From NCBI RefSeq assembly GCF_002162835.1, contig NZ_MAAX01000154.1, forward strand, positions 10,496-74,495: a stretch of DNA of 64,000 bases, written 5' to 3'. Positions 6,534 through 19,235 of the stretch are shown here, one piece after another (positions within the stretch are counted from its first letter, which is position 1; each line of letters begins with the position of its first letter). The notes under the pieces were generated by a model. It was not told the DNA's origin. It made no database searches and was given only the letters and a program-made list of their open reading frames with translations. Made by a program: the position numbers and the translations under genes. Source of the DNA: Nonlabens dokdonensis. Lineage in GTDB: Bacteria; Bacteroidota; Bacteroidia; Flavobacteriales; Flavobacteriaceae.

Positions 6534-7112
6534 ATGAGTCACCGACACTTTTTAATCTACAAACCTTATAAAATGCTCAGTCAGTTCATGACTAACGATA
6601 GGCATCAAAAAAACAAAAAGTTTTTAGGTGATTTACACGATTTTCCAGGAGGCAGCATGGCAGTAGGAAGACTGGACGAAACCAGTGAAGGATTACTACT
6701 CATCACTACCGACGGCCAACTGAGCAGCCATATCAACAAAAAAGGAAAAGTAGAAAAAGAATACTACGCTCAAGTAGATGGAATCATCACCGAAGAAGCC
6801 GTTCAAAAAATGACCTCTGGAATCGAGATCAGCATTAATGGTAGTTTATATCAAACTAAAGAGTGTAAAGCACAAATTTTAAAAGAGGTTCCCAATCTAC
6901 CAGAAACGCATCAGCGTATTAGAGATGAGCGCCATGGTCCTACTTCTTGGGTTTCTGTAACATTAAAAGAAGGGAAATTTAGACAAGTGCGTAAAATGTG
7001 TGCTGCAGTTGGTTTTCCCGTATTGCGACTGGCTCGTGTACGGATAGGTGATTTTACTCTGGAAAGTTTGGATGACAAAACCGTAAAAGAGGTTACTAAT
7101 CAAATGGATTGA
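6534..7112 (+). CDS. Pseudouridine synthase (RsuA/RluE family)
   Basis: YKPY, GRLD catalytic motif, EGLLLIT, EGKFRQVRKM; ATG 6534 preferred. Confidence 0.92.
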   Translation: MSHRHFLIYKPYKMLSQFMTNDRHQKNKKFLGDLHDFPGGSMAVGRLDETSEGLLLITTDGQLSSHINKKGKVEKEYYAQVDGIITEEAVQKMTSGIEISINGSLYQTKECKAQILKEVPNLPETHQRIRDERHGPTSWVSVTLKEGKFRQVRKMCAAVGFPVLRLARVRIGDFTLESLDDKTVKEVTNQMD

Positions 7113-7142
7113 TTTGGTTTACAACCCAAAATAAGGATTTAT

Positions 7143-7757
7143 CTACTTATCATTCTTTAAAATAATCAACGTAGCTCGTACACCAGATGCAAGATTCCAG
7201 ATGTTTTGTTGCACTACTTTGCCTTTCATATCCATCACCTTAAACTCTGCAGTGTTGGGTCCTGAAGTCCCTTGATTTAAGGCTTCGATTTCTAGTTTAT
7301 TAAATCCATCTTTCAGCGGTATTCCTACTCCTTGATAAGCGTTACGTAGATAGATTTTATCGACTAGGATTTTATCATCTTGCCAGATGCGCACCATATC
7401 GCCATCTTCAAATTGGTGATCTCTACAAACTAATCTTAGAATTTTCTCACCAGTTCTTATCTCACCTAAAAAGGTATCACTTCTAAAACCAGCACCTACC
7501 GGAGCATCTTTCTTGAACTTTTGATTTTTGTATTTGATGCCTGGATCTACAAGATCTGTCTCCATACGCATCTTGATCTCGTTATTTTCTTTAGGTCTCG
7601 TATAGGTCTTAGACTCGGTCTTTTCTGGAAACAGCATAGAACCGCCACTTTTAGTTTGTGGTACAGGTTCTATAGTTCTAGGTGTGGTTTTAGGCGTCTC
7701 TTGCGCCATGGAAACACCGAGTGAAAGCATAAAAATAAATACAACTAACTTTTTCAT
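7143..7757 (-). CDS. Hypothetical secreted protein
   Basis: Signal peptide MKKLVVFIFMLSLGVSMA; beta-rich C-terminus. Confidence 0.75.
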   Translation of the reverse strand: MKKLVVFIFMLSLGVSMAQETPKTTPRTIEPVPQTKSGGSMLFPEKTESKTYTRPKENNEIKMRMETDLVDPGIKYKNQKFKKDAPVGAGFRSDTFLGEIRTGEKILRLVCRDHQFEDGDMVRIWQDDKILVDKIYLRNAYQGVGIPLKDGFNKLEIEALNQGTSGPNTAEFKVMDMKGKVVQQNIWNLASGVRATLIILKNDK

Positions 7758-7977
7758 ACTTGCAAGTTATCAAATTCCTTGCCCAAAGTGATCACAAAGA
7801 AGTTATTTTTAGTTAAAGCTTGTGTTCTAAGTACATCATCTTCAGCTTGCCTAACTTAAAATACAAGAGATGGCATCACTTTCTAAATTTGGAAATAGTG
7901 TTTTAAAATAAAAACACCTGTTATGGAGTGGCTACCATTACAGATGTTTCTATATATTCTTATGCTTATATGTATCT

Positions 7978-8007: not shown

Positions 8008-9318
8008 TTAGTCTAAACGAGTGATCTTTGCTCCTATCGCCTGTAAACGCGTGTCTATGTTTTGATAACCACGGTCTATTTGCTCAATGTTGTGGATGGT
8101 GCTGGTACCTTTGGCACTTAAAGCAGCGATTAACAACGAGATTCCGGCGCGTATGTCTGGGCTGGTCATGGTTGTTGCTTTTAATTGCGACTGGAAATCA
8201 TACCCTATAACACTCGCTCTGTGCGGATCACAAAGAATAATTTTGGCACCCATGTCGATCAGTTTATCAACGAAAAACAATCGGCTTTCAAACATCTTCT
8301 GGTGAATCAACACACTACCTCTAGCCTGCGTTGCTACTACTAGAACAATACTCAATAAATCTGGCGTGAAACCTGGCCATGGCGCGTCAGAAATAGTTAA
8401 AATAGAACCGTCGATGTAATTCTGGATCTCATAACCATCGGTATGTGCAGGAATATGAATATCATCGCCCTGACGCTCGATGGTGATTCCTAGCTTTCTA
8501 AAAGTCGCTGGGATAATTCCCAACTCGTCATAAGAAACATTTTTAATCGTGACCTCAGATTTAGTCATCGCAGCAAGACCTATCCAGCTACCTATCTCGA
8601 TCATATCTGGCAGAATGCGGTGCGTGGTACCACCTAATTTCTCAACTCCTTCTATGATCAACATGTTAGAACCTATTCCAGAAATATTTGCGCCCATGCG
8701 CACAAGCATGTTACACAATTGCTGTAAATACGGCTCGCAAGCAGCGTTGTAAATGGTGGTTTTTCCTTTGGCAAGAACGGCAGCCATCACGATGTTTGCT
8801 GTTCCTGTTACTGATGCTTCATCGAGTAGCATGTAAGCACCATGAAGCTCGTCTGCTTCTACACCGTAGAAGTATTCTTCTTTGTTGTATCTGAATTTTG
8901 CACCTAGTTTGATAAAACCTTCAAAGTGCGTGTCTAGACGACGACGACCGATTTTATCACCACCAGGACGCGGAATATATCCTTTTCCAAAACGAGCCAG
9001 TAATGGCCCAACTAACATGATAGAACCACGCAAGCCACGACCTTGGATTTTATATTCTTCAGACTGTAACCAGTCCAAGTTGATATTATCGGCTTGAAAG
9101 GTGTAGGATTCTTTACCGTTTTTAGTCACTTTAACGCCTAGATTGTTGAGTAAAGCGATCAATTTATTGACATCTATAATGTCAGGAACGTTATTGATTT
9201 CTACTGGCTGGTCGGTTAATAAGACTGCACAAAGTATTTGAAGCGCTTCATTTTTAGCACCTTGAGGTTGAATTTCTCCTTTTAATTGATGTCCACCTTC
9301 TATGATAAATGTTCCCAT
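8008..9318 (-). CDS. murA: UDP-N-acetylglucosamine 1-carboxyvinyltransferase
   Basis: GAKNEAL, PGGDKIGRR (Asp at the Cys115-equivalent position), PWPGFTPD, SPDIRAG, IDRGY. Confidence 0.97.
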   Translation of the reverse strand: MGTFIIEGGHQLKGEIQPQGAKNEALQILCAVLLTDQPVEINNVPDIIDVNKLIALLNNLGVKVTKNGKESYTFQADNINLDWLQSEEYKIQGRGLRGSIMLVGPLLARFGKGYIPRPGGDKIGRRRLDTHFEGFIKLGAKFRYNKEEYFYGVEADELHGAYMLLDEASVTGTANIVMAAVLAKGKTTIYNAACEPYLQQLCNMLVRMGANISGIGSNMLIIEGVEKLGGTTHRILPDMIEIGSWIGLAAMTKSEVTIKNVSYDELGIIPATFRKLGITIERQGDDIHIPAHTDGYEIQNYIDGSILTISDAPWPGFTPDLLSIVLVVATQARGSVLIHQKMFESRLFFVDKLIDMGAKIILCDPHRASVIGYDFQSQLKATTMTSPDIRAGISLLIAALSAKGTSTIHNIEQIDRGYQNIDTRLQAIGAKITRLD

Positions 9319-9403
9319 GAATAATTTTAATTGTAATTTTTAAAAATAAAGAACTTGGAGTGGTTTGTAAAGCGATCTACTGTGAAGTATTCACAAGTAA
9401 TGA

Positions 9404-9490
9404 ACAGTTGAAAGTCTCAGTTTTTAGTGGCAGGATTTAGTATTCAGTTTTCAGTGGCAGTAGGCAGTAATTAGTAGTTAGTAGTCAGAT
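9404..9490 (+). repeat. Degenerate 6-7-mer (YAG-periodic) tandem tract
   Basis: ctcagtt tttagtg gcag gatttag tattcag ttttcag tggcag taggcag taattag tagttag tagtcag. Confidence 0.7.
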
Positions 9491-9736
9491 TATTAAATTG
9501 TCATCATGCTGCATAGCGGAATCTCTTTGGGTCTTTCGCAAAATATTTAAGATGAAATGAATGCCGCTGTTTGTAAACCCTTTTTTAAGACGTATATCAA
9601 CTAGATTTTAAACGCTTTACAACTACCTACTAATGGGTATTTCTACCCAATTTTTAATCAAACGTACGAAATACCGCTCTTATTCAATTTAATTGCTATA
9701 AATTTCAAGAATCATTTGCTGCTGCAATGCTCCTTA

Positions 9737-9752
9737 TTACGGTTTCCCGTAA
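9737..9752. promoter_or_regulatory. Inverted repeat TTACGG-N4-CCGTAA at the head of the island
   Basis: Seen directly; function unknown. Confidence 0.35.
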
Positions 9753-9922
9753 AGGATATGGATTTTGAGGTTGTACTTTGGGCGGTGGAATGGTGAGTTG
9801 AATGTGCGCCTATCCCGGTAATTGATATAGGATAAAGTGTACGTTTGGGATTGTATAACGATTTAGCAATAATTATAGACGAACATTGTAACTTAAGGAT
9901 AAATCAATTTACAAAACAAATT

Positions 9923-10150
9923 ATGGGATTATTAGATGATTTAATGAAAAGCACGGAAAAAATGATTGATGAAATGGATTCTGGTTCTGAAAAGAGCAGA
10001 AGTCAATCTTTTCTTGAAGAATTCTGGGACAAGCGAAATGAGTTGCAAGACGCAAAAGACACTAGTTACGGAAATGAAAAAAAAGGAATAAGCCAACTTC
10101 TTGATTTATTCAACAGAAAAGGAAGAGACAACGATATGGAACCATATTAG
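9923..10150 (+). CDS. Small acidic hypothetical protein (75 aa from ATG 9923)
   Basis: MGLLDDLMKSTEK...; ATG preceded by an A-rich leader. Confidence 0.6.
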   Translation: MGLLDDLMKSTEKMIDEMDSGSEKSRSQSFLEEFWDKRNELQDAKDTSYGNEKKGISQLLDLFNRKGRDNDMEPY

Positions 10151-10188
10151 GAATTGACAAAAAGAAAAATGACTTTTAAATATTAAAT

Positions 10189-10866
10189 ATGGCAGAAGAA
10201 ATAAATAAAGGAGTAATTATGAAAACTCTGGATTGGACTTACGATAAAGCCGTAAGTGGTTTTCCAGGAATAGATTCCGCCTATGAAATGGCTGAAAATT
10301 ACTTAAAAAATCAACCAGACAAAATAAAGGCAGCGGATAGTTTAATCCGCTGGCAAAATACTAAATCCGGTACAAGTGGGTTTTTAGCAGGACTTGGAGG
10401 ATTTATAACTTTGCCTGTAACTATTCCAGCAAATTTAGCAAGCATAATGTATATTCAAATTAGGATGATTGCTGCAATCGCAGTTATTGGTGGTTATGAT
10501 TTGAAAGATGACAGAGTTAAGTCATTAATTTATGCTTGTATGACTGGTAACGCTGCTAAAGAAATTATTAAGGATGTTGGACTTGCAGCTGGTAAAAAAT
10601 TTGCTATAGTTGGAATTAAGAACATATCAACCAAAACAATTATTGCTATCAATCAAAAGGTTGGTTTTAGATTGATAACTAAATTTGGCGAGAAGGGAGT
10701 TGTAAATTTAGGGAAAGCCATACCGATTGCTGGTGGAGTAATTGGTGGCGCAATTGATTCCTACACTACTAACGTAATTGGTAACATAGCGAGAAATACC
10801 TTCGTAGGAAAAAAAGTTAAGTATTATCCGTATGTCACTATTTTTGGATATGATATTACTTACTAG
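10189..10866 (+). CDS. EcsC family protein
   Basis: LIRWQ...SGFLAGLGG..TLPVTIPA, QIRMIAAIA..GGYD, GKAIP..GGVIGG pattern. Confidence 0.85.
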   Translation: MAEEINKGVIMKTLDWTYDKAVSGFPGIDSAYEMAENYLKNQPDKIKAADSLIRWQNTKSGTSGFLAGLGGFITLPVTIPANLASIMYIQIRMIAAIAVIGGYDLKDDRVKSLIYACMTGNAAKEIIKDVGLAAGKKFAIVGIKNISTKTIIAINQKVGFRLITKFGEKGVVNLGKAIPIAGGVIGGAIDSYTTNVIGNIARNTFVGKKVKYYPYVTIFGYDITY

Positions 10867-10875
10867 GCGAAAATA

Positions 10876-11080
10876 ACTGTTGCTAAAAATGTATAAAAAC
10901 AATAAGGCAATTGTAGCAAAACCGAATGGTTCGGAAACATTTGCAAGGTTGCCAAATTTTTAAATTTGGCTTATTCAGAAAAAAAAGATTATAAGAAAAA
11001 TTAGAAATATGGCTTGTGCTAAACCGAGGTTTAGTGCTTCTTAATCGCCTACTTTTCATATACTAACCGTTGCCATTAAT
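10876..11080 (+). repeat. Inter-cassette spacer, family A (most complete copy)
   Basis: Imperfect terminal IR (tgtataaaaacaataaggc / gcctacttttcatatac), central GCCAAATTTTTAAATTTGGC 10951-10970, GGCTTGTGCTAAA 11011-11023, GTT at 11069. Confidence 0.7.
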
Positions 11081-11093
11081 TAGAACTAACTTT

Positions 11094-11609
11094 ATGAAAA
11101 CAATATTTCTTTTTCTTTTTAGTCTGCTGATTTTTACCACAAATAATTTTGAGATTAATAATGGGGAAGTTCTCTGGCGCAAAGTTAATCAACAATCGAT
11201 TTTAATTGAAACTCTTGAGGAAACTATGATTAAGTCTGGTAGATTTACTAATCTCACTATAACCGAAAATTTAATAACTGCTGAAATACAAAACTTACCA
11301 ATAGATTACAAAGGTGCTGGCGAATCCGAAATGTCAATACCAATGTACATTGCTCGCAGTTCTATTAATGCTTACATAGTGATTGAAATAAAAGAAAACA
11401 GATACAGAGTAACAGTCAAAAACATAAAACTAGTTCAAAATTATTCAGATGCTTTGAGCGAGCAAGGCGAAATAACAGCTCTTGAAGTTTATGCGTTGCG
11501 AAAGAAAAATACTGAGTTCAAAAAAGGATTTATGAAAAAAACTTCCAGAATCCTAGATCATACTTTCGAAAAGCTAATAGTGTTTGAAAATGATAATGGT
11601 AAGTGGTAA
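11094..11609 (+). CDS. Hypothetical secreted protein (DUF4468-like, tentative)
   Basis: Signal peptide MKTIFLFLFSLLIF; IEIKENRYRVTVKNI segment; ATG 11094. Confidence 0.65.
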   Translation: MKTIFLFLFSLLIFTTNNFEINNGEVLWRKVNQQSILIETLEETMIKSGRFTNLTITENLITAEIQNLPIDYKGAGESEMSIPMYIARSSINAYIVIEIKENRYRVTVKNIKLVQNYSDALSEQGEITALEVYALRKKNTEFKKGFMKKTSRILDHTFEKLIVFENDNGKW

Positions 11610-11618
11610 TTAATGAAT

Positions 11619-11740
11619 GTGCTACAACAACATAAAAAAATAATAGGCAATAAGTGCTTAATCAAATGAAAAAGGCACTTTTACGAGATCGCCAAATTTT
11701 TAAATTTGGCTAAAGAAAGATTAAAATAAAGCGATAATAA
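11619..11740 (+). repeat. Inter-cassette spacer, family A (left half only)
   Basis: GCTACAAC...aataggcaa, then an identical 20-mer GCCAAATTTTTAAATTTGGC at 11691-11710; right arm missing. Confidence 0.65.
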
Positions 11741-11752
11741 GAACTGAAAATA

Positions 11753-12244
11753 TTGAAAATAATAGTCAAAGAAATATCAAAAGGGTTAGATGACAATAAT
11801 TGGTTTAAAGAAATCACAAATTCTTTACAAGGTTTAGATTGTAAAAAATATGTTGAAGGACTAATAAATTTTTCTCAAAAAAAACAGAAGAGAAAAGTCG
11901 CTAAATTGCAAAATTTTATATTAAAAATTCTAGAAGAACAGTTTGTAGACTTTCAATGGCAAACTGAATTTAAAGTTAGTGAAAAAAGAGACGCAATTGA
12001 TATTTATGGAAAACGTGAAAATGATATTTTAATTATTGAATTAGATAAATGGAGAGCGGATCAAGTCGCAAAAAAACTAATTTCAAGAACTGCACTTTTA
12101 AAAGAAAATAATATAGGTTTTGTATCTTTATGTTATGCAGGAACACCAAGTATGAATAAGTCTGAATGTTTAAAATATTTTCAGTATGGAAATATAGTTT
12201 TAACTGAACTAAATAACTATTACGCTGGAATGATAATAGAATAA
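11753..12244 (+). CDS. Hypothetical protein with PD-(D/E)XK-like pattern
   Basis: TEFKV...DAIDIYG...IIELDKWRADQ; TTG start. Confidence 0.55.
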   Translation: MKIIVKEISKGLDDNNWFKEITNSLQGLDCKKYVEGLINFSQKKQKRKVAKLQNFILKILEEQFVDFQWQTEFKVSEKRDAIDIYGKRENDILIIELDKWRADQVAKKLISRTALLKENNIGFVSLCYAGTPSMNKSECLKYFQYGNIVLTELNNYYAGMIIE

Positions 12245-12440
12245 CTAACGACTAAAACGTATTAATCAAATATATCGTTAGTCACATAGTCAAAGTTAAG
12301 GTCTAATTCAAAAGAAGCCAAATTTTTAAATTTACCGATTTTCAATAGAAAGATAAATAGTAAAAATTGAAAAATTCGGCTTGTGCTAAATCGAAAAGTC
12401 AGTACATTTTTAAAAGCTACGAGCCATATGCAGAGATGTT
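12244..12440 (+). repeat. Inter-cassette spacer (short IR plus family A core)
   Basis: ACTAACGA/TCGTTAGT IR 12244-12282; GCCAAATTTTTAAATTT 12317-12333; GGCTTGTGCTAAA 12378-12390 at the same spacing as the first copy. Confidence 0.65.
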
Positions 12441-12475
12441 TTGCTTAAAACCTAAAATTATCAAATAAAACAATT

Positions 12476-13021
12476 GTGAGCGAAGAAAAAGATGAACTAA
12501 TAGATAAACTAACCAAACTCAGTGAAAAACCTGGAGGAAAACAAGCTGTGAGATATATCCTAAATACATTAGGAGCAGTTCCATTTGCTGGTGGAGCAAT
12601 TGCTGGAGCTGGACAACTTTGGGGAGAAAAAGAACAACAAAAATTTAATGACACATTGGCTGAATGGGCTGCAAAAACAGATAGTGATTTAAAAATAATC
12701 ACTAACAATATTGATAAATTACTTCAGACACCGACTAGAGCTAAACTGAGTTTATTAATGGGAGAAATTTTAGGAGATGAATTAGCTAAAGGTTTTTTAT
12801 CAAAACCAAATCAATACATACCAATTGCTTTACATAATCAAACTCTTAACGAATTAGAACCTTTTATTGAAAAGAGTTGGATTAAAATTCAACCTACTCA
12901 CAGTACCGTTCAAATGGGCGGTGGAAATCGAGTTGGAAATAACATTGAAGAATTAAAAAGACCATATGGTTTTGGTAGTACTTTTAATATCCAAATTAAC
13001 GAGTCATATTTTAATGATTAA
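12476..13021 (+). CDS. Hypothetical protein
   Basis: 181-aa ORF with GTG start; GAVPFAGGAIAGAG glycine-rich helix. Confidence 0.7.
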   Translation: MSEEKDELIDKLTKLSEKPGGKQAVRYILNTLGAVPFAGGAIAGAGQLWGEKEQQKFNDTLAEWAAKTDSDLKIITNNIDKLLQTPTRAKLSLLMGEILGDELAKGFLSKPNQYIPIALHNQTLNELEPFIEKSWIKIQPTHSTVQMGGGNRVGNNIEELKRPYGFGSTFNIQINESYFND

Positions 13022-13034
13022 AAAGAAAAAAACT

Positions 13035-13170
13035 TAAGCGCAATAATGGCGCGAAGTAATTGCTTGTTCTCGCCTACTTCTTAAAATCCTCGCGGATTTT
13101 CAGTTTGTTGCGTACTGGCTGAGTTTCGTGTTAACCCATGTAGCTACACATAGCCGAGACCTTTTAATGC
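13035..13170 (+). repeat. Inter-cassette spacer, family B
   Basis: taattgcttgttctcgcctacttc, AAAATCC-TCGC-GGATTTT hairpin 13083-13100, ends atagccgagacc. Confidence 0.6.
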
Positions 13171-13195
13171 AATTTTAAAGAAATATCGTGTATTT

Positions 13196-13918
13196 ATGAA
13201 AGAGAAAATAATTTATTTGACCGTCATATTTGGGTTACTCATTTTTATAGGATTTTTGATAGAAGTTGTTTTTTACGTAAATACTGCCTTGAATGATTTT
13301 GTGAGATTTCTGTTTGTATTACCTTGGATTTTAATAATTGGATTTTTCGTATACCGATTTATTAACAAAATTGATGATATTACCATTGGTACATTTGCAG
13401 GGGCATCTGTTTTAATAGGATTGCTATTATCAATCGTTACATTGATTTTAAACTTGTCTTTAGGTCTTGATAAAATAATTGAAAAGAATTATGTGGCAGT
13501 TTATGGAATAACAACAGGTTTTGATAGCCGTTCTGATAGCGAACAAGACATCAAACATAAAACAAACGTATATAAAATTAACGATAGCAGAGCGAAAAGG
13601 GAAATTAATAAAATGGAATATGTATATGAAGATGCTTCGACAAAAGAATTCTTGTTTTGGCAGACAGCATTTGCAAGCGGATTTGAACCAATCAATATAT
13701 CGGAATACAATGGCTCAAATTCCTTTGGTAAAATCATAACCTTATTTTTTACCGTAGGACCAATATTTATTCTTGAACTATTTATAAACGCTATTATGAG
13801 TTCTTGGATTTTATTTATAATACCGATTATAGGATTGTTTTTTAAGAGAATGCTTTTTGAAAAAGAATTGAAACCTTTTACAAACTACTTTACAAACAGT
13901 GTAAAAAAAACTGCATAG
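13196..13918 (+). CDS. Hypothetical multi-TM membrane protein
   Basis: 3 N-terminal and 2 C-terminal hydrophobic segments. Confidence 0.75.
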   Translation: MKEKIIYLTVIFGLLIFIGFLIEVVFYVNTALNDFVRFLFVLPWILIIGFFVYRFINKIDDITIGTFAGASVLIGLLLSIVTLILNLSLGLDKIIEKNYVAVYGITTGFDSRSDSEQDIKHKTNVYKINDSRAKREINKMEYVYEDASTKEFLFWQTAFASGFEPINISEYNGSNSFGKIITLFFTVGPIFILELFINAIMSSWILFIIPIIGLFFKRMLFEKELKPFTNYFTNSVKKTA

Positions 13919-14110
13919 AACAATGTATCTAAAAAATAGCGCAAGAAATTACAAAAAAGGTAACATGCACATTTCCAAGGCAACCAAATTTAAAATTTGG
14001 CTAATTGAAAAAATGATAATAAGAAAAGTAAAAAATACCGCACGTGCTTAATCCTAAAATCATTTTATAATTTACACGCTACGAGAAATATACAAGACCT
14101 TTGTCATTAA
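13914..14110 (+). repeat. Inter-cassette spacer, family A (diverged)
   Basis: aacaatgtatctaaaaaatagcg ... CCAAATTTAAAATTTGGC 13984-14001 ... cgctac...atatacaagacctttgtcattaat. Confidence 0.65.
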
Positions 14111-14122
14111 TAAACATCAAAC

Positions 14123-14629
14123 ATGAAACATCTTCTAACACTTTTGATTTTATTTAGCACTATTCCCATAATAGCAAATGGACAAAATTTTGTCTTTATT
14201 GGTGAGAACAGCTATCCAAGTACTAAAAAGTATACTTTAAAATCTAATTCCGATGATGAGAATATCAATGATTTAAAGCTTGTTTTCGCCAAGGATGGCG
14301 AAAAGGGACTTATCGTTGTTAGTTCAAAACTAACTGACGTTGTTAAAATCGCAAATAAACTAATTATATATCTTGATGATGGGACCGTAATCTCTTGTAT
14401 TGACAGAGGTATTAATGACAATGTTGATGATATCGCAATTTCTGCATATAGTTTAACAAAAGCAGAATTTACTAAAATTAAATTTAGTAATATTAATACA
14501 ATTAGATATCAAATTGTATGTTCTGTATGCGGACCATTTAATTCATGGGAAGGCACTTACTCAGCATCAAATAAAGGAAACTCGAAGACCGACTTTACTG
14601 TAGTTGTCTCTAAGTTTTATGAAAAATAA
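14123..14629 (+). CDS. Hypothetical secreted protein
   Basis: Signal peptide MKHLLTLLILFSTIPIIANG. Confidence 0.75.
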   Translation: MKHLLTLLILFSTIPIIANGQNFVFIGENSYPSTKKYTLKSNSDDENINDLKLVFAKDGEKGLIVVSSKLTDVVKIANKLIIYLDDGTVISCIDRGINDNVDDIAISAYSLTKAEFTKIKFSNINTIRYQIVCSVCGPFNSWEGTYSASNKGNSKTDFTVVVSKFYEK

Positions 14630-14635
14630 AATAAT

Positions 14636-15514
14636 ATGGGAAAGAAACTTACAGTTTACATGATTGACGGAACTGCTTATGGACCTCGTTTGAGCGAAAT
14701 TGGTAATTGGGTCGGTAAAGCAATCTATTCACCTAGAGCATCAGTCAACAAAATAATGAATCGCCCTGAATTTGACAATCCTGGAATCTATTGTTTAAAA
14801 GGTGACCCAACAGACGATGCTTTTGATGAAAAAATATATATCGGCGAAGCAGAAAATATTAAGACAAGATTAAAGCAGCACCTAAGTGATTCTAATAAGG
14901 ATTTTAAAGAGCTTATCTTTTTTGTAAGTAAGGACGAGCTGCTGACTAAAACTCAAATTAGATACTTAGAATCTAGACTTGTTCAAATTGCATTAGAGGC
15001 AAAAACGGCACAAATAGACAATGGCAACTCACCTAGTTTACCAACACTTCATGAAGCGGATATTTCTGACATGGAATATTTTCTTGAGCAGATCAAACTG
15101 ATTCTTCCAGTAATGGGTTTTAAATTTTTAATTTCTTCAACTGTTTCTGCGAATAGTAAATTAGAATCAAATAGTAAAGGAGAAGTACATGAGACTTACT
15201 TGATTAAAACGAAAACGTTTAAAGCAACAATGATTGAAACGGATCAAGGATATATTGTCGCGAAAGGAAGTGAAGCTAAGAAAGACCTGTCCCCTTCTTG
15301 CACAGAAACTTATCGAAATATGAGAAGAAAGCTAATTGAAACCAAAATCATGATTGAAAATAAAGATAAAATGATTTTTACGGAAGATGCAGTTTTCAAT
15401 AGTCCAAGTGCAGCATCAAATATGGTTCTAGGTCGTAATTCAAATGGTTTTACAGAATGGGTTACGAAAAAAGGGGAAACATTTAAGAAAGTTCAAGAAA
15501 AAATAAATAAATAA
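14636..15514 (+). CDS. GIY-YIG nuclease fused to DUF4357 domain
   Basis: GIYCL...IYIGEAENIKTRLKQH and YLESRL (GIY-YIG); C-terminal FNSPSAASNMVLGRNSNGFTEW (DUF4357). Confidence 0.88.
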   Translation: MGKKLTVYMIDGTAYGPRLSEIGNWVGKAIYSPRASVNKIMNRPEFDNPGIYCLKGDPTDDAFDEKIYIGEAENIKTRLKQHLSDSNKDFKELIFFVSKDELLTKTQIRYLESRLVQIALEAKTAQIDNGNSPSLPTLHEADISDMEYFLEQIKLILPVMGFKFLISSTVSANSKLESNSKGEVHETYLIKTKTFKATMIETDQGYIVAKGSEAKKDLSPSCTETYRNMRRKLIETKIMIENKDKMIFTEDAVFNSPSAASNMVLGRNSNGFTEWVTKKGETFKKVQEKINK

Positions 15515-15605
15515 TGCTTAACAAAGTACTATGGTAAAAAACAAATAAATCCTGATACGATACAAATAAGGAGCCGTTATTAAACATTAAAACAGAGATA
15601 AAAAA

Positions 15606-15983
15606 ATGGGACTATTTAATAAATTGATGGGAAACGCCAGTGAAGTTTCTTCTGAGAAATTGAACGAAAAATACGGTAGACTCCTTATAGAAGGTGAAAC
15701 TATAGAATTAGGTTTTAAGCTATTGCGTGATACGTTTATGTTTACCAATAAAAGGTTGATATTAATTGATGTACAAGGACTCACAGGAAGCAAAGTAGAG
15801 TATAAATCTTTACCTTATAAAAGCATTTCAAGACTTTCCTTAGAAACTGCTGGAACATTTGATCTGGACGCTGAGTTGAAAATTTATATCTCAAGTGAAA
15901 ACATACCTTCTGTAAGTAAAAAGTTCAATAAAAGCATTGATGTTTATGAAGTCCAAAAATACCTAGCGTCGAAGATCATGTAG
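15606..15983 (+). CDS. Bacterial PH-domain protein (bPH_1/DUF1696, YvbH-like)
   Basis: RDTFMFTNKRLILIDVQGLTGSKVEYKSLPY, ETAGTFDLDAEL. Confidence 0.9.
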   Translation: MGLFNKLMGNASEVSSEKLNEKYGRLLIEGETIELGFKLLRDTFMFTNKRLILIDVQGLTGSKVEYKSLPYKSISRLSLETAGTFDLDAELKIYISSENIPSVSKKFNKSIDVYEVQKYLASKIM

Positions 15984-16033
15984 GGAATGAAAGGTGTGTT
16001 TAATTTATCCGTTTAGCAATTCATAATTAATTC

Positions 16034-16309
16034 ATGCAGCACAAATCGAGCGAGTATTGTCCTTGTTGTGGTTATAACAGGTTTGACCTAGAAGACAGAT
16101 TAAATTATTCTATTTGTCCCATCTGTTTTTGGGAAGATGATCCAGTTGCTTTTAAGGACATCAATTATAAAGGTGGAGCAAATAGAGTTTCATTAAGACA
16201 AGCACGAGAGAATTATAAAGCATTTGGAGCTTGTGAAGTTTCTATGATTCCTAATACAAGAAAAGTAACTGGTAAGGATATTTTAAATCCTCAATGGAAA
16301 GCTCAATAA
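16034..16309 (+). CDS. CPCC cysteine-rich family protein
   Basis: CPCCG...ICPICFWEDD...GGAN.VSLRQAREN. Confidence 0.88.
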   Translation: MQHKSSEYCPCCGYNRFDLEDRLNYSICPICFWEDDPVAFKDINYKGGANRVSLRQARENYKAFGACEVSMIPNTRKVTGKDILNPQWKAQ

Positions 16310-16324
16310 AGCATCAATTTTTCT

Positions 16325-16645
16325 TCAAAAAGAACTATACCTTATCAAGATATAAATTACTAACAGTCCTAATAATCCAGTTGTGACGTAACCAAAAAAG
16401 ATGCTTACTAAAAGCAGTAAGCACAATATCAAAGTAATGATTTTTAAAACTTTGCTGGTATTATTAGTAGAAGCAGTTTCATTTTTTTTAGGACTCGTCA
16501 TTTGATTAAAAAACAACTCGTCAGATTTTTTAAGGTAATATTGAATTTGGGACTCCTCTACTCCATCTTCTTCCAGCTTTTGTCTTATCTCGCTAGAGCT
16601 TAATCCTTTCTTGCGCAATGACACGATATCGTTTAGTTGGCTCAT
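16325..16645 (-). CDS. Hypothetical protein with C-terminal TM hairpin
   Basis: Helical N-terminus (GLSSSEIRQKL) and two hydrophobic segments. Confidence 0.65.
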   Translation of the reverse strand: MSQLNDIVSLRKKGLSSSEIRQKLEEDGVEESQIQYYLKKSDELFFNQMTSPKKNETASTNNTSKVLKIITLILCLLLLVSIFFGYVTTGLLGLLVIYILIRYSSF

Positions 16646-16803
16646 GTAGCTCTAGAATTATGACAGGTAAAGAATAGCATTTGATTCAGTAGTATTACTG
16701 GCCTTAAGTAACTGCTGGTAACGTCTATCTGTCGCTAAAATAAACTTAAGTCTTGATAGGCACAAATTTGTTTATTATATTAAAGTTGTATTAATTCATT
16801 TTG

Positions 16804-16830
16804 ACATATCGGTAATTATAGATATGTTTG
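16804..16830 (+). promoter_or_regulatory. ArsR operator candidate overlapping -7 box
   Basis: ACATATC-N10-GATATGT inverted repeat overlapping TATGTTTG (TAnnTTTG) at 16823-16830. Confidence 0.6.
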
Positions 16831-16834
16831 CGGT

Positions 16835-17137
16835 ATGAATTTAAAACACGCTACCGAAATAGGAAAATGTTTATCTAATCAAACGAGATTTCAGATTATG
16901 GAATGGCTCAAAGAACCAGAAAAGCATTTCCCACCACATGAAACTTTAAAACATTTTAATGATGGTGTTTGCGTCACATATATTCAAGAGAAGACAGGAT
17001 TATCACAATCTACCGTATCAACCTATCTCACAAATATGGAAAAATGCGGTCTTCTCATTTGCACCAGACACGGTAAATGGTCGTATTTGAAAAGAAATGA
17101 AGAAACTATAAAGCTGTTTACAGAATTCTTAAAATAA
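16835..17137 (+). CDS. ArsR/SmtB family transcriptional regulator
   Basis: LSNQTRFQIMEWL, GVCV..IQEKTGLSQSTVSTYL, GKWSY. Confidence 0.9.
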   Translation: MNLKHATEIGKCLSNQTRFQIMEWLKEPEKHFPPHETLKHFNDGVCVTYIQEKTGLSQSTVSTYLTNMEKCGLLICTRHGKWSYLKRNEETIKLFTEFLK

Positions 17138-17150
17138 AAAATTTAAATAA

Positions 17151-17164
17151 ACATATCGATAATT
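17151..17164 (+). promoter_or_regulatory. Second copy of the ArsR operator-like sequence
   Basis: ACATATCGATAATT, 13/14 identical to 16804-16817. Confidence 0.5.
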
Positions 17165-17180
17165 CGCAATATAACAAAAT

Positions 17181-17450
17181 ATGAAACTACTTATTGATGT
17201 ATTGGGTTGGTCAGGATCTTTATTTGTAATTATGGCTTATGCTTTAACCCTAATAGAAAACTAAAAATACTTAAATTATGCGAAGTATTTAAACTTGTTA
17301 GGTGGTTTATTTATAGCAATAAACTGTTATTACTACAATGCTATTCCATCTTTTGTAACTAATTTAATATGGAGTGTAATAGCAACTTTGACAATTTACA
17401 AAGCAAGAAACAAGAATCAACATTGCAATAAAAATCAATGTCTAACATAA
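17181..17450 (+). pseudogene. Small membrane protein (CBU_0592-like) interrupted by an in-frame TAA
   Basis: MKLLIDVLGWSGSLFVIMAYALTLIEN*KYLNYAKYLNLLGGLFIAINCYYYNAIPSFVTNLIWSVIA...; stop at 17262-17264; not in ORF track. Confidence 0.75.
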
Positions 17451-17460
17451 AACAATAACA

Positions 17461-18063
17461 ATGAAAATTTTAATAATAGGTGGAAATGGTACCATAGGTA
17501 AAACGGTAGCTGCACACTTCAAAGAAAAGAATGACATCTTAATTGCTGGACGTACTAATGGAGATGTTACGGTAGATATAGCTGACAGTAATTCTATAAG
17601 AAATATGTTTGAGAAAATCGGTAAACTGGATGCAATCATTTGCATCGCAGGAGAGGCAAAATGGGATGATTTTAATAACCTAACTGAAGATGATTACTAT
17701 ATAGGTTTAAAAAGTAAATTAATGGGACAGGTTAATCTTGTACGTATAGGACAAGATTTTTTGAACCCTAAGGGCTCGATCACTTTATCTACAGGTATTC
17801 TAGCAGATGATCCTGTAGTTAAAACAACAAGTGCATCAATGGTAAATGGCGGTATTCATAGTTTTGTACAAGCCGTTGCTCTAGAAATTGAGAATGGAAT
17901 AAGAGTGAATGTAGTTTCTTCTGGTATGGTAGAAGATGCTTATGAAAAGTATAAAGACTACTTTCCAGGACACAATCCTATTCCTATGACTAAGGTCATT
18001 AATGGCTACGTAAGAAGCGTAAAGGGAAAAGGCAATGGAGAAGTCATCAGGATTTACGATTAA
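17461..18063 (+). CDS. Short-chain dehydrogenase (short ~200-aa type)
   Basis: IIGGNGTIG Rossmann motif, SKLMGQVNLV, GIRVNVVS. Confidence 0.9.
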   Translation: MKILIIGGNGTIGKTVAAHFKEKNDILIAGRTNGDVTVDIADSNSIRNMFEKIGKLDAIICIAGEAKWDDFNNLTEDDYYIGLKSKLMGQVNLVRIGQDFLNPKGSITLSTGILADDPVVKTTSASMVNGGIHSFVQAVALEIENGIRVNVVSSGMVEDAYEKYKDYFPGHNPIPMTKVINGYVRSVKGKGNGEVIRIYD

Positions 18064-18356: not shown

Positions 18357-19175
18357 TTAATACTGCTCATCTTCATTAGGAAAGTCAACTGCTTTCACAT
18401 CTTTAACATAACTAGCAACCGCATTACCCATATCTTCATAGAGATTCAAATAACGACGTAAAAAACGTGGGTTGAACTCGTGCGTCATCCCAAACATATC
18501 GTGAGAAACCAGTACCTGACCGTCTACATTTGCTCCTGCTCCTATTCCTATGACAGGAATGGTAAGCTGGTCTGCTACTTTTTTTGCTAGTGCTGCTGGC
18601 ACTTTTTCTAGAACTAAGGCAAAACAACCCCAGCGCTCCAGCGCTAGTGCATCTTCTACTAGTTTTGCCGCTTCTTCTTCTTCTTTGGCTCTTACTGTGT
18701 AGGTACCAAATTTATAAATGGATTGAGGTGTAAGTCCCAAATGTCCCATTACCGGTATACCAGCATGCAGGATGCGTTTTATGGATTCCTTTACTTCTCT
18801 TCCACCTTCTAGTTTTACAGAGTGGCCACCGCTTTCTTTCATGATACGTATCGCACTGCGCAATGCTTCCTTAGGGTCACTTTGATAACTACCGAAGGGT
18901 AAATCTACCACTACAAGAGCACGCTCTACAGCACGCACAACACTACTGGCATGATAAATCATCTGGTCCAGCGTTATAGGTAAAGTGGTCTCGTGTCCTG
19001 CCATTACATTACTGGCACTATCGCCTACAAGAATGACGTCTATTCCTGCGCTATCGATAATCTTTGCCATGGTATAATCATAGGCAGTTAACATCGATAT
19101 CTTTTCATCGTTGCCCTTCATTTCTACAAGGGTTTTAACGGTCACTCTTTTATATTGCTTCTTTGCGGTAGACAT
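18357..19175 (-). CDS. panB: 3-methyl-2-oxobutanoate hydroxymethyltransferase
   Basis: [31 protein letters not shown]; ATG at 19175 (MSTAKKQY). Confidence 0.97.
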
Positions 19176-19195
19176 AAAACTTATTTTAAGTCTAG

Positions 19196-19203
19196 CAAAA
19201 GTA
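19196..19203 (-). promoter_or_regulatory. Bacteroidota -7 promoter box for panB
   Basis: TACTTTTG on minus strand, 20 nt before ATG. Confidence 0.6.
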
Positions 19204-19235
19204 CTAATATTACAGTTCAAATTAATTGAAACCCT

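Follow-up and report, generated by a model that had tools for sequence, protein, structure and literature searches.

Integrons serve as the model for gene capture in bacteria; in them, the core site with which a cassette starts and the inverse core of the site belonging to that cassette are complementary. In Bacteroidota, however, surveys have turned up almost no integrons, with only one complete integron in Bacteroidetes being reported by IntegronFinder surveys (PMC9024848). The closest arrays described in the phylum are the rAID-1 clusters of Bacteroidales (for acquired interbacterial defence associated with a recombinase; Ross et al. 2019, bioRxiv 10.1101/471110), which are defined by an XerD-like recombinase at the 5′ end with 44% or more identity to BF9343_RS08045 and contain co-oriented low-GC genes separated by intergenic repeats "reminiscent of integrons" (10.1101/471110). 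They were described only in gut Bacteroidales, where their cargo was read as orphan type VI secretion system immunity genes (10.1101/471110), and the mechanism of their biogenesis was still called unknown in 2025 (10.1101/2025.05.03.651265). The present analysis concerns a 64,000-nucleotide stretch of contig NZ_MAAX01000154.1 of Nonlabens dokdonensis (the window, in whose numbering all positions are given), where an original prediction, made from the sequence letters, had proposed an integron-like cassette array with long attC-like spacers and without an integrase at 9923–16309. A literature search returned no description of such arrays in Flavobacteria.

Our analysis leads us to conclude, with good confidence, that this locus is a recombinase-less, partly eroded cassette array of an integron-like system of site-specific recombination found widely among marine Flavobacteriaceae. 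The integron-like nature originally proposed was borne out by boxes complementary across open reading frames (ORFs), a covarying stem, a recombinase that heads arrays with an attI-like junction, and a gene content that varies between strains. The system probably works like an integron, yet it stands outside the IntI/attC family in the strict sense.

The window array comprises ten ORFs at 9923–16309, all co-oriented according to the window ORF list, as predicted, and its GC content is 29–33% versus approximately 35% in the flanks. A search with nhmmer revealed four co-oriented copies of an element of about 202 nt, all within the array and none elsewhere in the 64 kb. The core palindrome CCAAATTTWWAAATTTGG, recognised originally as a shared central hairpin, occurs three times in the window, always within the array, where 0.06 occurrences are expected; in the fourth copy, its loop is one base shorter. 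The sequence GGCTTGTGCTAAA, said to follow the palindrome by 60–61 nt in two of the spacers, was located at that distance in copies 1 and 3. Of the four predicted spacers, all were recovered as copies, with the correction that the third starts at 12240 and not at 12290, about 50 nt earlier than stated.

To determine the distribution of the element, CCAAATTTWWAAATTTGGC was searched for in one genome per species, yielding at least 120 stretches. Among the matches listed, nearly all were from marine Flavobacteriaceae (Aequorivita, Nonlabens, Dokdonia, Maribacter, Aquimarina, Zobellia, Psychroserpens, Lacinutrix, Polaribacter and others), and 109 of the 120 palindrome loci contained the whole unit, in at least 164 copies with E-values down to 1e-42. 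Within a locus, the copies were always co-oriented and spaced by 0.65–5.8 kb, with the intervening and surrounding ORFs in the same orientation. The window copies were aligned as A1 and 108 family copies as A2, the latter being the basis of the nhmmer profile; genome and metagenome loci that were compared carry L-numbers, and X3 and X4 are metagenomes with related Nonlabens contigs.

The unit has a median length of 202 nt (range, 195–206 nt). In A2, the consensus of the 5′ part is AAC, N6, YAAC, AAY, GTRTATAAAACATAGC, a variable hairpin, GCATATTTGCAAG.TC and the palindrome GCCAAATTTTTAAATTTGGC, followed in the 3′ part by an A-rich stretch, AAAATTTAAAAATTCGGCTYGTG, CACGCTACGTTTCATATAC, AAGAC, CGTTR, N6 and AAT. 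The resulting layout is N6′-YAAC (R″ box), 3 nt, an 18-bp stem arm, an insert of about 150 nt, the 3′ arm, 5 nt and GTTR-N6 (R′ box), with the long-range stem being formed by the blocks GTRTATAAAACATAGC and GCTACGTTTCATAYAC (L″/L′). Compensatory changes were seen in 11 of 15 stem pairs, 94% of the cells in A2 being paired, and the covariation score was 0.237 versus 0.096 in shuffles (0/500 reaching the observed value) and 0.014–0.052 in slid controls. Two stem positions are A.C in 101 and 105 of the 108 copies, respectively, which corresponds to G.T on the opposite strand, and with DNA energy parameters the bottom strand was the more stable one in 97/108 copies. Mismatches take the place of the extrahelical bases for which folding of the bottom strands had been suggested.

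Terminal AAC, noted originally together with GTT, proved to be a feature of the family, present in 138/154 site starts, with GTT in 123/145 site ends; the classical consensus RYYYAAC was matched by 8/154 sites and GTTRRRY by 11/145. Short sites of about 70–75 nt (L077, L075) keep the boxes and the stem and have a 4–10-nt loop in place of the 150-nt insert, which identifies the insert as an optional module. The Bacteroidetes promoter motif TAnnTTTG (PMC10309648) is matched by TAAATTTG, which makes up the palindrome's right half, and a conserved TTTG is located 17 nt upstream. The identity of site bodies within a locus equals that between loci, and concerted evolution of site bodies was rejected on that ground. 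As a separate observation, the palindrome's right half recurs as a direct copy, TTTAAAAATTCGGC, about 45 nt further downstream (A2 columns 85–106 and 144–158; window 10951–10970 and 11003–11016), and the two covary, T-A changing to C-G in three copies; this points either to an alternative pairing or to one protein having three binding sites.

Within a single unit, no pairing of the variable hexamers was found, the scores being random-like, and for this reason the hexamers were tested against those of the neighbouring unit. It was found that, across the ORF lying between two units, GTTR-N6 at the 3′ end of unit n−1 is the exact reverse complement of the N6′-YAAC with which unit n starts. Of 48 adjacent pairs, 19 were complementary at all 7 variable positions, as were 16 of the 29 pairs that are less than 1.6 kb apart (chance of a perfect match, 0.006). 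Exact 10-mer pairs numbered 260 in the cassette configuration, counted over 870 kb of loci, versus 75 in the outward configuration and 76 against an unrelated locus; these two served as controls, and an opposite-strand control was dropped for being symmetric by construction. The cassettes defined in this way have a median length of 830 bp, with the longest ORF on the array strand in 208/226. Box complementarity across ORFs is the integron cassette rule. Site bodies were not co-inherited with the ORF on either side, a result that is taken up below. A CzcD-like cation-efflux cassette, bounded by the boxes GTTGTAAGTA and TACTTACAAC, was encountered in five genomes (L075, L087, L095, L109 and L118) at 85–94% nucleotide identity, and the site bodies flanking it differ on both sides among these genomes.

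A check had been suggested of whether the sites cluster next to a tyrosine recombinase gene, and in other genomes a conserved recombinase of this type indeed heads the arrays. It was recognised as a recurrent protein cluster, encoded upstream of the arrays and co-oriented with the cassettes. In L110, L077, L051, L041 and L040, the first cassette begins at a GTTR-N6 located 50–130 nt past the recombinase stop codon, the first N6 agrees with the first R″ box at 9–10 of 10 positions, and the GTTR-N6 is preceded by a short perfect hairpin and 4–8 nt, an arrangement that is read as a putative attI-like site. A look-up from the protein side added L122, L123, L125 and L127, where CTATA(C/T)ACAATT|GTTR is found about 45 nt past the stop codon, with chains of exact box pairs coming after it. 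A site adjoining the recombinase gene at which the cassettes begin was present in 9/9 recombinase loci, approximately 45–130 nt past the stop, and comprises a hairpin, 4–8 nt and a GTTR-N6 whose N6 pairs with the first R″ box. At least 13 sites lie within 10 kb in L123, and the chromosomal flanks of the recombinase arrays differ among L122, L123, L125 and L127.

In searches with the array-linked recombinases of these other loci, three of four scored 227–230 bits and one 212 bits with the XerA-type model NF040815 of NCBIfam (cut-off, 220), and the integron-integrase model TIGR02249 was matched in two pieces with 196–209 bits versus a cut-off of 265. The best match of the recombinase core was archaeal XerA (4a8e, 1e-43), in a gap-free alignment, while in comparison with VchIntIA (2a3v) about 43 residues are absent at the IntI-specific insertion (76 IntI residues opposite 33 of the query), so that the insertion which marks the IntI clade is missing. 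At its N-terminus, the protein has an additional domain of about 105 residues; among relatives down to 38% identity, no variation was seen in the catalytic R, K, HxxR, H and Y. Homologues at 76–88% identity are present in many genera of Flavobacteriaceae; the NCBI name of the linked recombinase is "site-specific tyrosine recombinase/integron integrase". Its predicted structure was of low confidence (pLDDT 64.6, pTM 0.33). To judge by its sequence, the recombinase is XerA-like and not IntI.

Two observations were made beside the recombinase. A gene for a putative zinc-ribbon protein of about 124 aa is invariably found in divergent orientation some 65 bp upstream of the recombinase gene (minus strand; L122 9559–9948, L123 9563–9934, L125 9562–9936 and L127 9562–9936), with sub-threshold zinc-ribbon/treble-clef matches, and may encode an accessory factor or regulator. 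In L041 (array-oriented 6574–7881), one cassette, with GTTAGGCAAC and GTTGCCTAAC as its boundaries, encodes a degenerate tyrosine-recombinase-like protein of 435 aa; this protein has GLE in place of the active-site GLR and no HxxR motif.

Compared with integrons and with integrase-less clusters of attC sites (CALIN), the arrays share the combination of an ORF with one imperfect palindromic site per cassette, the complementarity of the start box to the inverse core of the cassette's own site, the AAC/GTT triplets, the architecture of R box, spacer, L box and variable loop, the strand asymmetry, and a diverse, often defence-related cargo; integrase-less arrays exist there as well. They differ in that the recombinase has no IntI insertion, possesses the additional N-terminal domain and is co-oriented with the cassettes, in that the R boxes are 10 bp long and deviate from RYYYAAC/GTTRRRY, in that the sites are 195–206 nt long with a conserved 150-nt insert and contain mismatches instead of extrahelical bulges, and in that site bodies are inherited apart from the ORFs. 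Likeness to XerA/Xer systems and to the pdif modules of Acinetobacter plasmids consists in the recombinase core, which matches XerA best, and in genes flanked by oppositely oriented recombinase sites; however, long folded palindromes are found here instead of 28-bp dif-like cores, the arrays follow directly behind the recombinase gene, and XerA, XerC and XerD lack the extra domain at the N-terminus.

With rAID-1 clusters, the system has in common the integron-like intergenic repeats and a diverse, strain-variable cargo that includes immunity-type proteins (here SUFU, MORN and WG-repeat). At least two co-oriented low-GC genes with conserved intergenic motifs, as described for rAID-1, are found in the window and likewise behind the recombinases of L122–L127. 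In contrast to rAID-1, the present arrays belong to marine Flavobacteriaceae, have sites of a defined 202-nt family and cassettes with explicit boundaries, and carry much cargo of the defence type. The two systems are probably related.

The original prediction had further held the system to be specific to Flavobacteriaceae, and this did not stand. A metagenome scan with an alignment of distant recombinase members yielded 80 loci. Distant recombinases with the N-terminal domain, at 34–58% identity, are followed by a GTTR-N6 57–155 nt past their stop codon and by its exact partner downstream; L146, for example, has four consecutive cassettes of about 650 nt each. For Xer-like matches without the N-terminal domain, no such box pair was found in the 3–8 kb downstream. 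The sites of the distant loci are 125–205 nt long and unrelated in sequence, with the layout N6′-YAAC, 3 nt, L″...L′, 4–5 nt and GTTR-N6 in common. Since distant recombinases head arrays of identical layout, the architecture is not Flavobacteriaceae-specific, and the Bacteroidales rAID-1 clusters had already been called integron-like. The further bacteria, which have other site sequences, are probably other Bacteroidota.

The window array is located between murA (8008–9318, minus strand), its left neighbour, and panB (18357–19220, minus strand), its right neighbour, and comparison of other strains at this murA locus revealed differing gene sets, as the prediction of variable ORF content and order had anticipated. 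The window derives from a seawater metagenome and, its MurA being 100% identical, from a Nonlabens very near to N. dokdonensis. L001 contains an 873-aa ATPase gene and a 244-aa gene with a degenerate family unit between them; L210 contains genes for 328-, 242-, 584- (Shedu-like) and 176-aa proteins, bPH_1, FMN_bind and a 157-aa protein; and DSW-6 (L208) yet another set. Contigs of X3 and X4 represent forms without 10985–12362 and without 16008–17461. The joint 10985->12362 in these related strains connects homologous positions of two units. At the other joint, the X3/X4 strains diverge exactly at 16008 and rejoin at 17461, the start of an SDR gene, with 30 other bases between; the 91-aa CPCC ORF is absent from them. 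This joint implies that the CPCC ORF, the convergent 106-aa ORF and the HTH_5 gene are variable too and that the right edge of the island lies at about 17460 and not at 16309. In two Nonlabens loci with 97% MurA identity (L213 and L214), the array is absent and a 694-aa DUF3857/transglutaminase-like gene occupies the murA–panB interval, from which it follows that the array at the murA locus is recent and lineage-restricted. Because gene content differs among near-identical Nonlabens strains, the fixed gene order that was to refute the original prediction does not exist here.

According to these data, a cassette is an ORF, or a few ORFs, between a 10-bp start box GTTR-N6 and its exact reverse complement N6′-YAAC, and a complete system consists of the recombinase gene, an attI-like site (short hairpin, 4–8 nt, GTTR) and co-oriented cassettes separated by attC-like sites. 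The following mechanism is proposed. The recombinase would excise and insert cassettes by a crossover in or beside the GTT/AAC triplets. Its substrate would probably be a folded single strand, as in integrons, with the bottom strand being favoured because the two invariant A.C mismatches of the top strand become G.T pairs. For the cassette that follows, a promoter of the Bacteroidetes type, TTTG-N17-TAAATTTG, may be provided by the 150-nt insert. The array of the window would be serviced in trans, if at all, and would be decaying, as suggested by a truncated site, changes of GTT to TTT and poorly matching boxes.

Several points weigh against this interpretation. In the window itself, box complementarity is partial, and the recombinase is absent within 64 kb. 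At the murA locus of other Nonlabens strains, no exact box pairs were found, and arrays there without such pairs mean that the locus may be inert. Recombination products such as circles or excision junctions were not observed, the X3/X4 joints being strain differences in assembled contigs. A cruciform, or a protein that binds symmetrically to double-stranded DNA, would likewise be compatible with covariation of the inverted repeat, and strand choice and promoter function are read from sequence. Finally, the single G|TT crossover of classical integrons does not predict site bodies that are inherited apart from the ORFs; their separate inheritance could be due to a two-sided exchange at the site or to homologous recombination in the conserved boxes.

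The last-mentioned process leads to the first of the other explanations, namely that the arrays were built and shuffled mainly by homologous recombination between site bodies, for instance after transformation, with the recombinase just moving or resolving the whole island. One cassette having different site bodies on both sides in different genomes would be accounted for, as would the joint 10985->12362 at homologous positions of two units. Homologous recombination would, however, neither create nor maintain exact inverted 10-mers that are unique to each cassette, nor would it give the first cassette a fixed starting GTTR past the recombinase, and the bodies are no more alike within a locus than between loci. 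We regard it as quite unlikely to be the main process, although it may contribute alongside site-specific recombination. That the repeats are regulatory units only, i.e., a promoter with a leader or terminator before each gene of a defence or immunity island and without any role in recombination, is a highly improbable explanation: the exact 10-bp box complementarity across ORFs, the long-range covarying stem, the insert-less short sites and the fixed position of the array behind a recombinase would all be left unexplained. In its favour are the match of TAAATTTG to TAnnTTTG, the conserved TTTG 17 nt upstream and the orientation with the genes; a promoter role may coexist with recombination.

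Many copies across genera, terminal inverted repeats and contigs that often break at the copies would be in keeping with selfish, self-spreading miniature repeats of the miniature inverted-repeat transposable element (MITE) or repetitive extragenic palindrome (REP) type, the genes between them being ordinary residents. Yet the terminal hexamers of one unit are neither complementary to each other nor duplicated but pair with the neighbour across the ORF, the copies are clustered, co-oriented and restricted to arrays (the four of the window are all at one locus), and the intervening genes differ among strains, which leaves this option with hardly any credibility. A relic of a classical integron, a CALIN with IntI-dependent attC sites whose IntI gene was lost, would explain the AAC...GTT ends, the R/L-box hairpin architecture, the cassette rule, the diverse cargo and the "integron integrase" in the NCBI name of the recombinase. 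It is very unlikely in view of the sub-cut-off, two-piece match to TIGR02249, the residues missing at the VchIntIA insertion together with the gap-free alignment to XerA, the rarity of RYYYAAC and GTTRRRY in sites that measure 202 nt, and a recombinase gene that is co-oriented with the cassettes and encodes the extra N-terminal domain.

An XerA-like, integron-like cassette system therefore remains our preferred interpretation. A more far-reaching version of it, which we put forward tentatively and consider possible but somewhat doubtful, is that of a second, phylum-wide lineage of integron-type gene capture in Bacteroidota, with gut rAID-1 as one branch, an XerA-like recombinase with its own N-terminal domain instead of the IntI insertion, a promoter module in the long sites, and exchange on both sides of the site, so that "an ORF plus two R boxes" shuffles independently of the site bodies. 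Two-sided exchange would be a mechanistic variant not known from classical integrons. In any event, the evidence points to a widespread functional analogue of integrons in marine Flavobacteriaceae, with thousands of recombinase homologues. If the interpretation is correct, it provides a concrete molecular model of how rAID-type immunity and defence arrays are built, an independent test of the essential features of attC recombination (folded strand, asymmetry, R/L boxes), access to a large store of cassettes for defence and immunity that lies unannotated in ocean bacteria, and a simple annotation rule, GTTR-N6 ... N6′-YAAC.

The features of the window array, on the plus strand from 9860 onwards, are as follows from left to right. 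The conserved non-coding left flank between murA and the array (9319–9859) forms the edge of the variable region; L001 is 95% identical to about 9840 and has other genes beyond, and L210 and L001 share ...GTTTG(A/G)GA and are divergent after it. Cassette 1 begins at an R′-like box, G(A)TTTAGCAAT followed by AAT, at 9860–9870; its TTTAGCAA has TTGCTAAA as reverse complement within the R″ box of site 1 (10878–10887). The start-box sequence GTTTAGCAAT is present again at 16011–16020. In a loose box-pair scan of the window, 309 matches versus a background of 126–220 were obtained; this was rejected as A/T-rich noise, and just the 9862/10878 pair was kept. The cargo of cassette 1 (9923–10866) is a 75-aa ORF (9923–10150) and a 225-aa EcsC-family protein (10189–10866; Pfam EcsC, 1e-11; PADLOC candidate defence family PDC-S29, 2e-88). 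Site 1 (10871–11081) is a full-length attC-like unit with E = 4.5e-41 versus the 108-copy profile, and consists of R″ TGTTGCTAAA (10878–10887), the palindrome (10951–10970) and R′ GTTGCCATTA (11069–11078).

Cassette 2 encodes a 171-aa protein with a signal-peptide-like N-terminus and no Pfam match above threshold (11094–11609). It is followed by site 2 (11619–11723; nhmmer model positions 9–121), which is a 5′ half only, reaching to just beyond the palindrome at 11691–11710 and thus without L′ and R′ boxes; its R″ box, GTGCTACAAC, and R′ of site 1 do not match. Cassette 3 contains a 163-aa ORF without a Pfam family (11753–12244), and site 3 (12240–12448) is of full length and diverged (nhmmer E = 7.6e-29 at 12240–12447), with a palindrome degraded to GCCAAATTTTTAAATTTACC (2 mismatches) and R′ GTTTTGCTTA at 12439–12448. 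Next to the 181-aa ORF of cassette 4 (12476–13021; ORF list and Pfam search), a divergent site of a second site family was read from the sequence at 13022–13195, starting with AAC-TTAAGC-GCAAT and ending with CATAGCCGAGACC-TTTTAATGCA-AT, where TTT replaces GTT (13162); its internal sequence occurs in sites of L095 and L109 as well. A piece of it, 13054–13116, had an assembler depth of about 1700 in metagenome X3 versus single digits around it, being part of this second, very abundant site family that is also found in L095 and L109.

Cassette 5 encodes a 240-aa multi-pass membrane protein (13196–13918; ORF list and Pfam search). In the full-length site 4 (13906–14111; nhmmer E = 6.2e-29), which has the palindrome with the shortened loop, R″ TGCATAGAAC (13912–13921) overlaps the stop codon, and R′ TTTGTCATTA (14100–14109) has TTT for GTT owing to a G -> T change. 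The cargo of cassette 6 (14123–15514) is a 168-aa secreted protein (14123–14629) and a 292-aa protein with Pfam DUF4357 and GIY-YIG domains (14636–15514; PADLOC PDC-S14, 5e-97); the GIY-YIG ORF has 76% nucleotide identity to a single-ORF cassette in L083, where the R″ box is identical. A short attC-like site of about 73 nt follows at 15513–15585, with R″ AATGCTTAAC (15513–15522) and R′ GTTATTAAAC (15576–15585). Of the two short inverted repeats originally reported, this one is thus a genuine short site, and the other, at 12244–12282, is only the 5′ part of copy 3. Cassette 7 encodes a 125-aa bacterial PH-domain protein (15606–15983; Pfam bPH_1, 1.7e-50) and is the sole cassette common to other strains at the murA locus (L210, L208 and X4). 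It is followed by a junction without a site body, likewise read from the letters, at 15998–16020, in which the R″-like GTTTAATTTA is followed by CC and GTTTAGCAAT, with GTTTAATTTA agreeing with the reverse complement of GTTATTAAAC at 7/10 positions. The last co-oriented ORF encodes a 91-aa Cys-rich CPCC protein (16034–16309; Pfam Cys_rich_CPCC, 2.9e-29).

Across each ORF of the window, the boxes match at just 7–8 of 10 positions, the later junctions at about 7/10. The decay that had been proposed was evident from copy 2, which lacks its 3′ half, and from two altered GTT triplets, the change being to TTT (14100 and 13162) and not to CTT. No tyrosine recombinase was detected in the 64-kb window, either among the ORFs or as a tblastn trace, in accordance with the stated absence of an integrase from the array. 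Boxes eroded to 7–8/10 and the absence of a recombinase within 64 kb make the array resemble a CALIN, which is defined by at least two co-oriented sites with no integrase nearby; here, four family sites and two or three others were counted between 9860 and 16020. By analogy, since its sites are not canonical attC, the window array is best described as an eroding, recombinase-less cassette array comparable to a CALIN. A search of Rfam gave nothing at the gathering threshold in the whole window and nothing at E <= 1 in 9300–16700, implying that the element is not a described RNA family such as Flavo-1; no tRNA or tmRNA was found in the window.

Clustering of 873 ORFs from the family loci gave few recurrent clusters. 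Matches to 108 Pfam families were obtained for 150 cassette ORFs, none of the families having more than five members; they include beta-lactamase fold, MORN_2, TIR, SduA_C (Shedu), SieB, GmrSD_N, DpnII-MboI, SUFU, WG_beta_rep, NADAR and transporters. Some of this cargo is of the immunity type (SUFU, MORN_2, WG_beta_rep), and many families are of phage defence or unrelated. Two of the window cassettes have matches to candidate defence families (PDC-S29, EcsC-like, and PDC-S14, GIY-YIG/DUF4357).

Two families of insertion sequences (IS) were observed inside sites at one fixed point, just past YAAC-A(AC) and before the L″ box; sites are thus IS targets, as they are for the IS1111-attC elements of classical integrons. 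The IS110-family element (L040, L065, L096, L118, L122 and L125) is always antisense, with the junction ...CAAACTTAAG|A(T/C)GTATA, and the DDE_Tnp_1/DUF772 element (L044, L079 and L122) ends in AACGGTAACCGTTGCACAAG. A "bodyless" junction, CAACAACGGTAACCGTTG, had been considered as an array terminus or a double-stranded core site and was rejected, as it is the end of a site-inserted IS. Among single cassettes, the protein encoded at 15995–16297 of L123 matches Pfam Hfx_Cass5, a family named from integron cassette surveys, and the array of L127 contains a complete HaeIII-type restriction-modification unit with a helix-turn-helix (HTH) regulator at 11836–14186.

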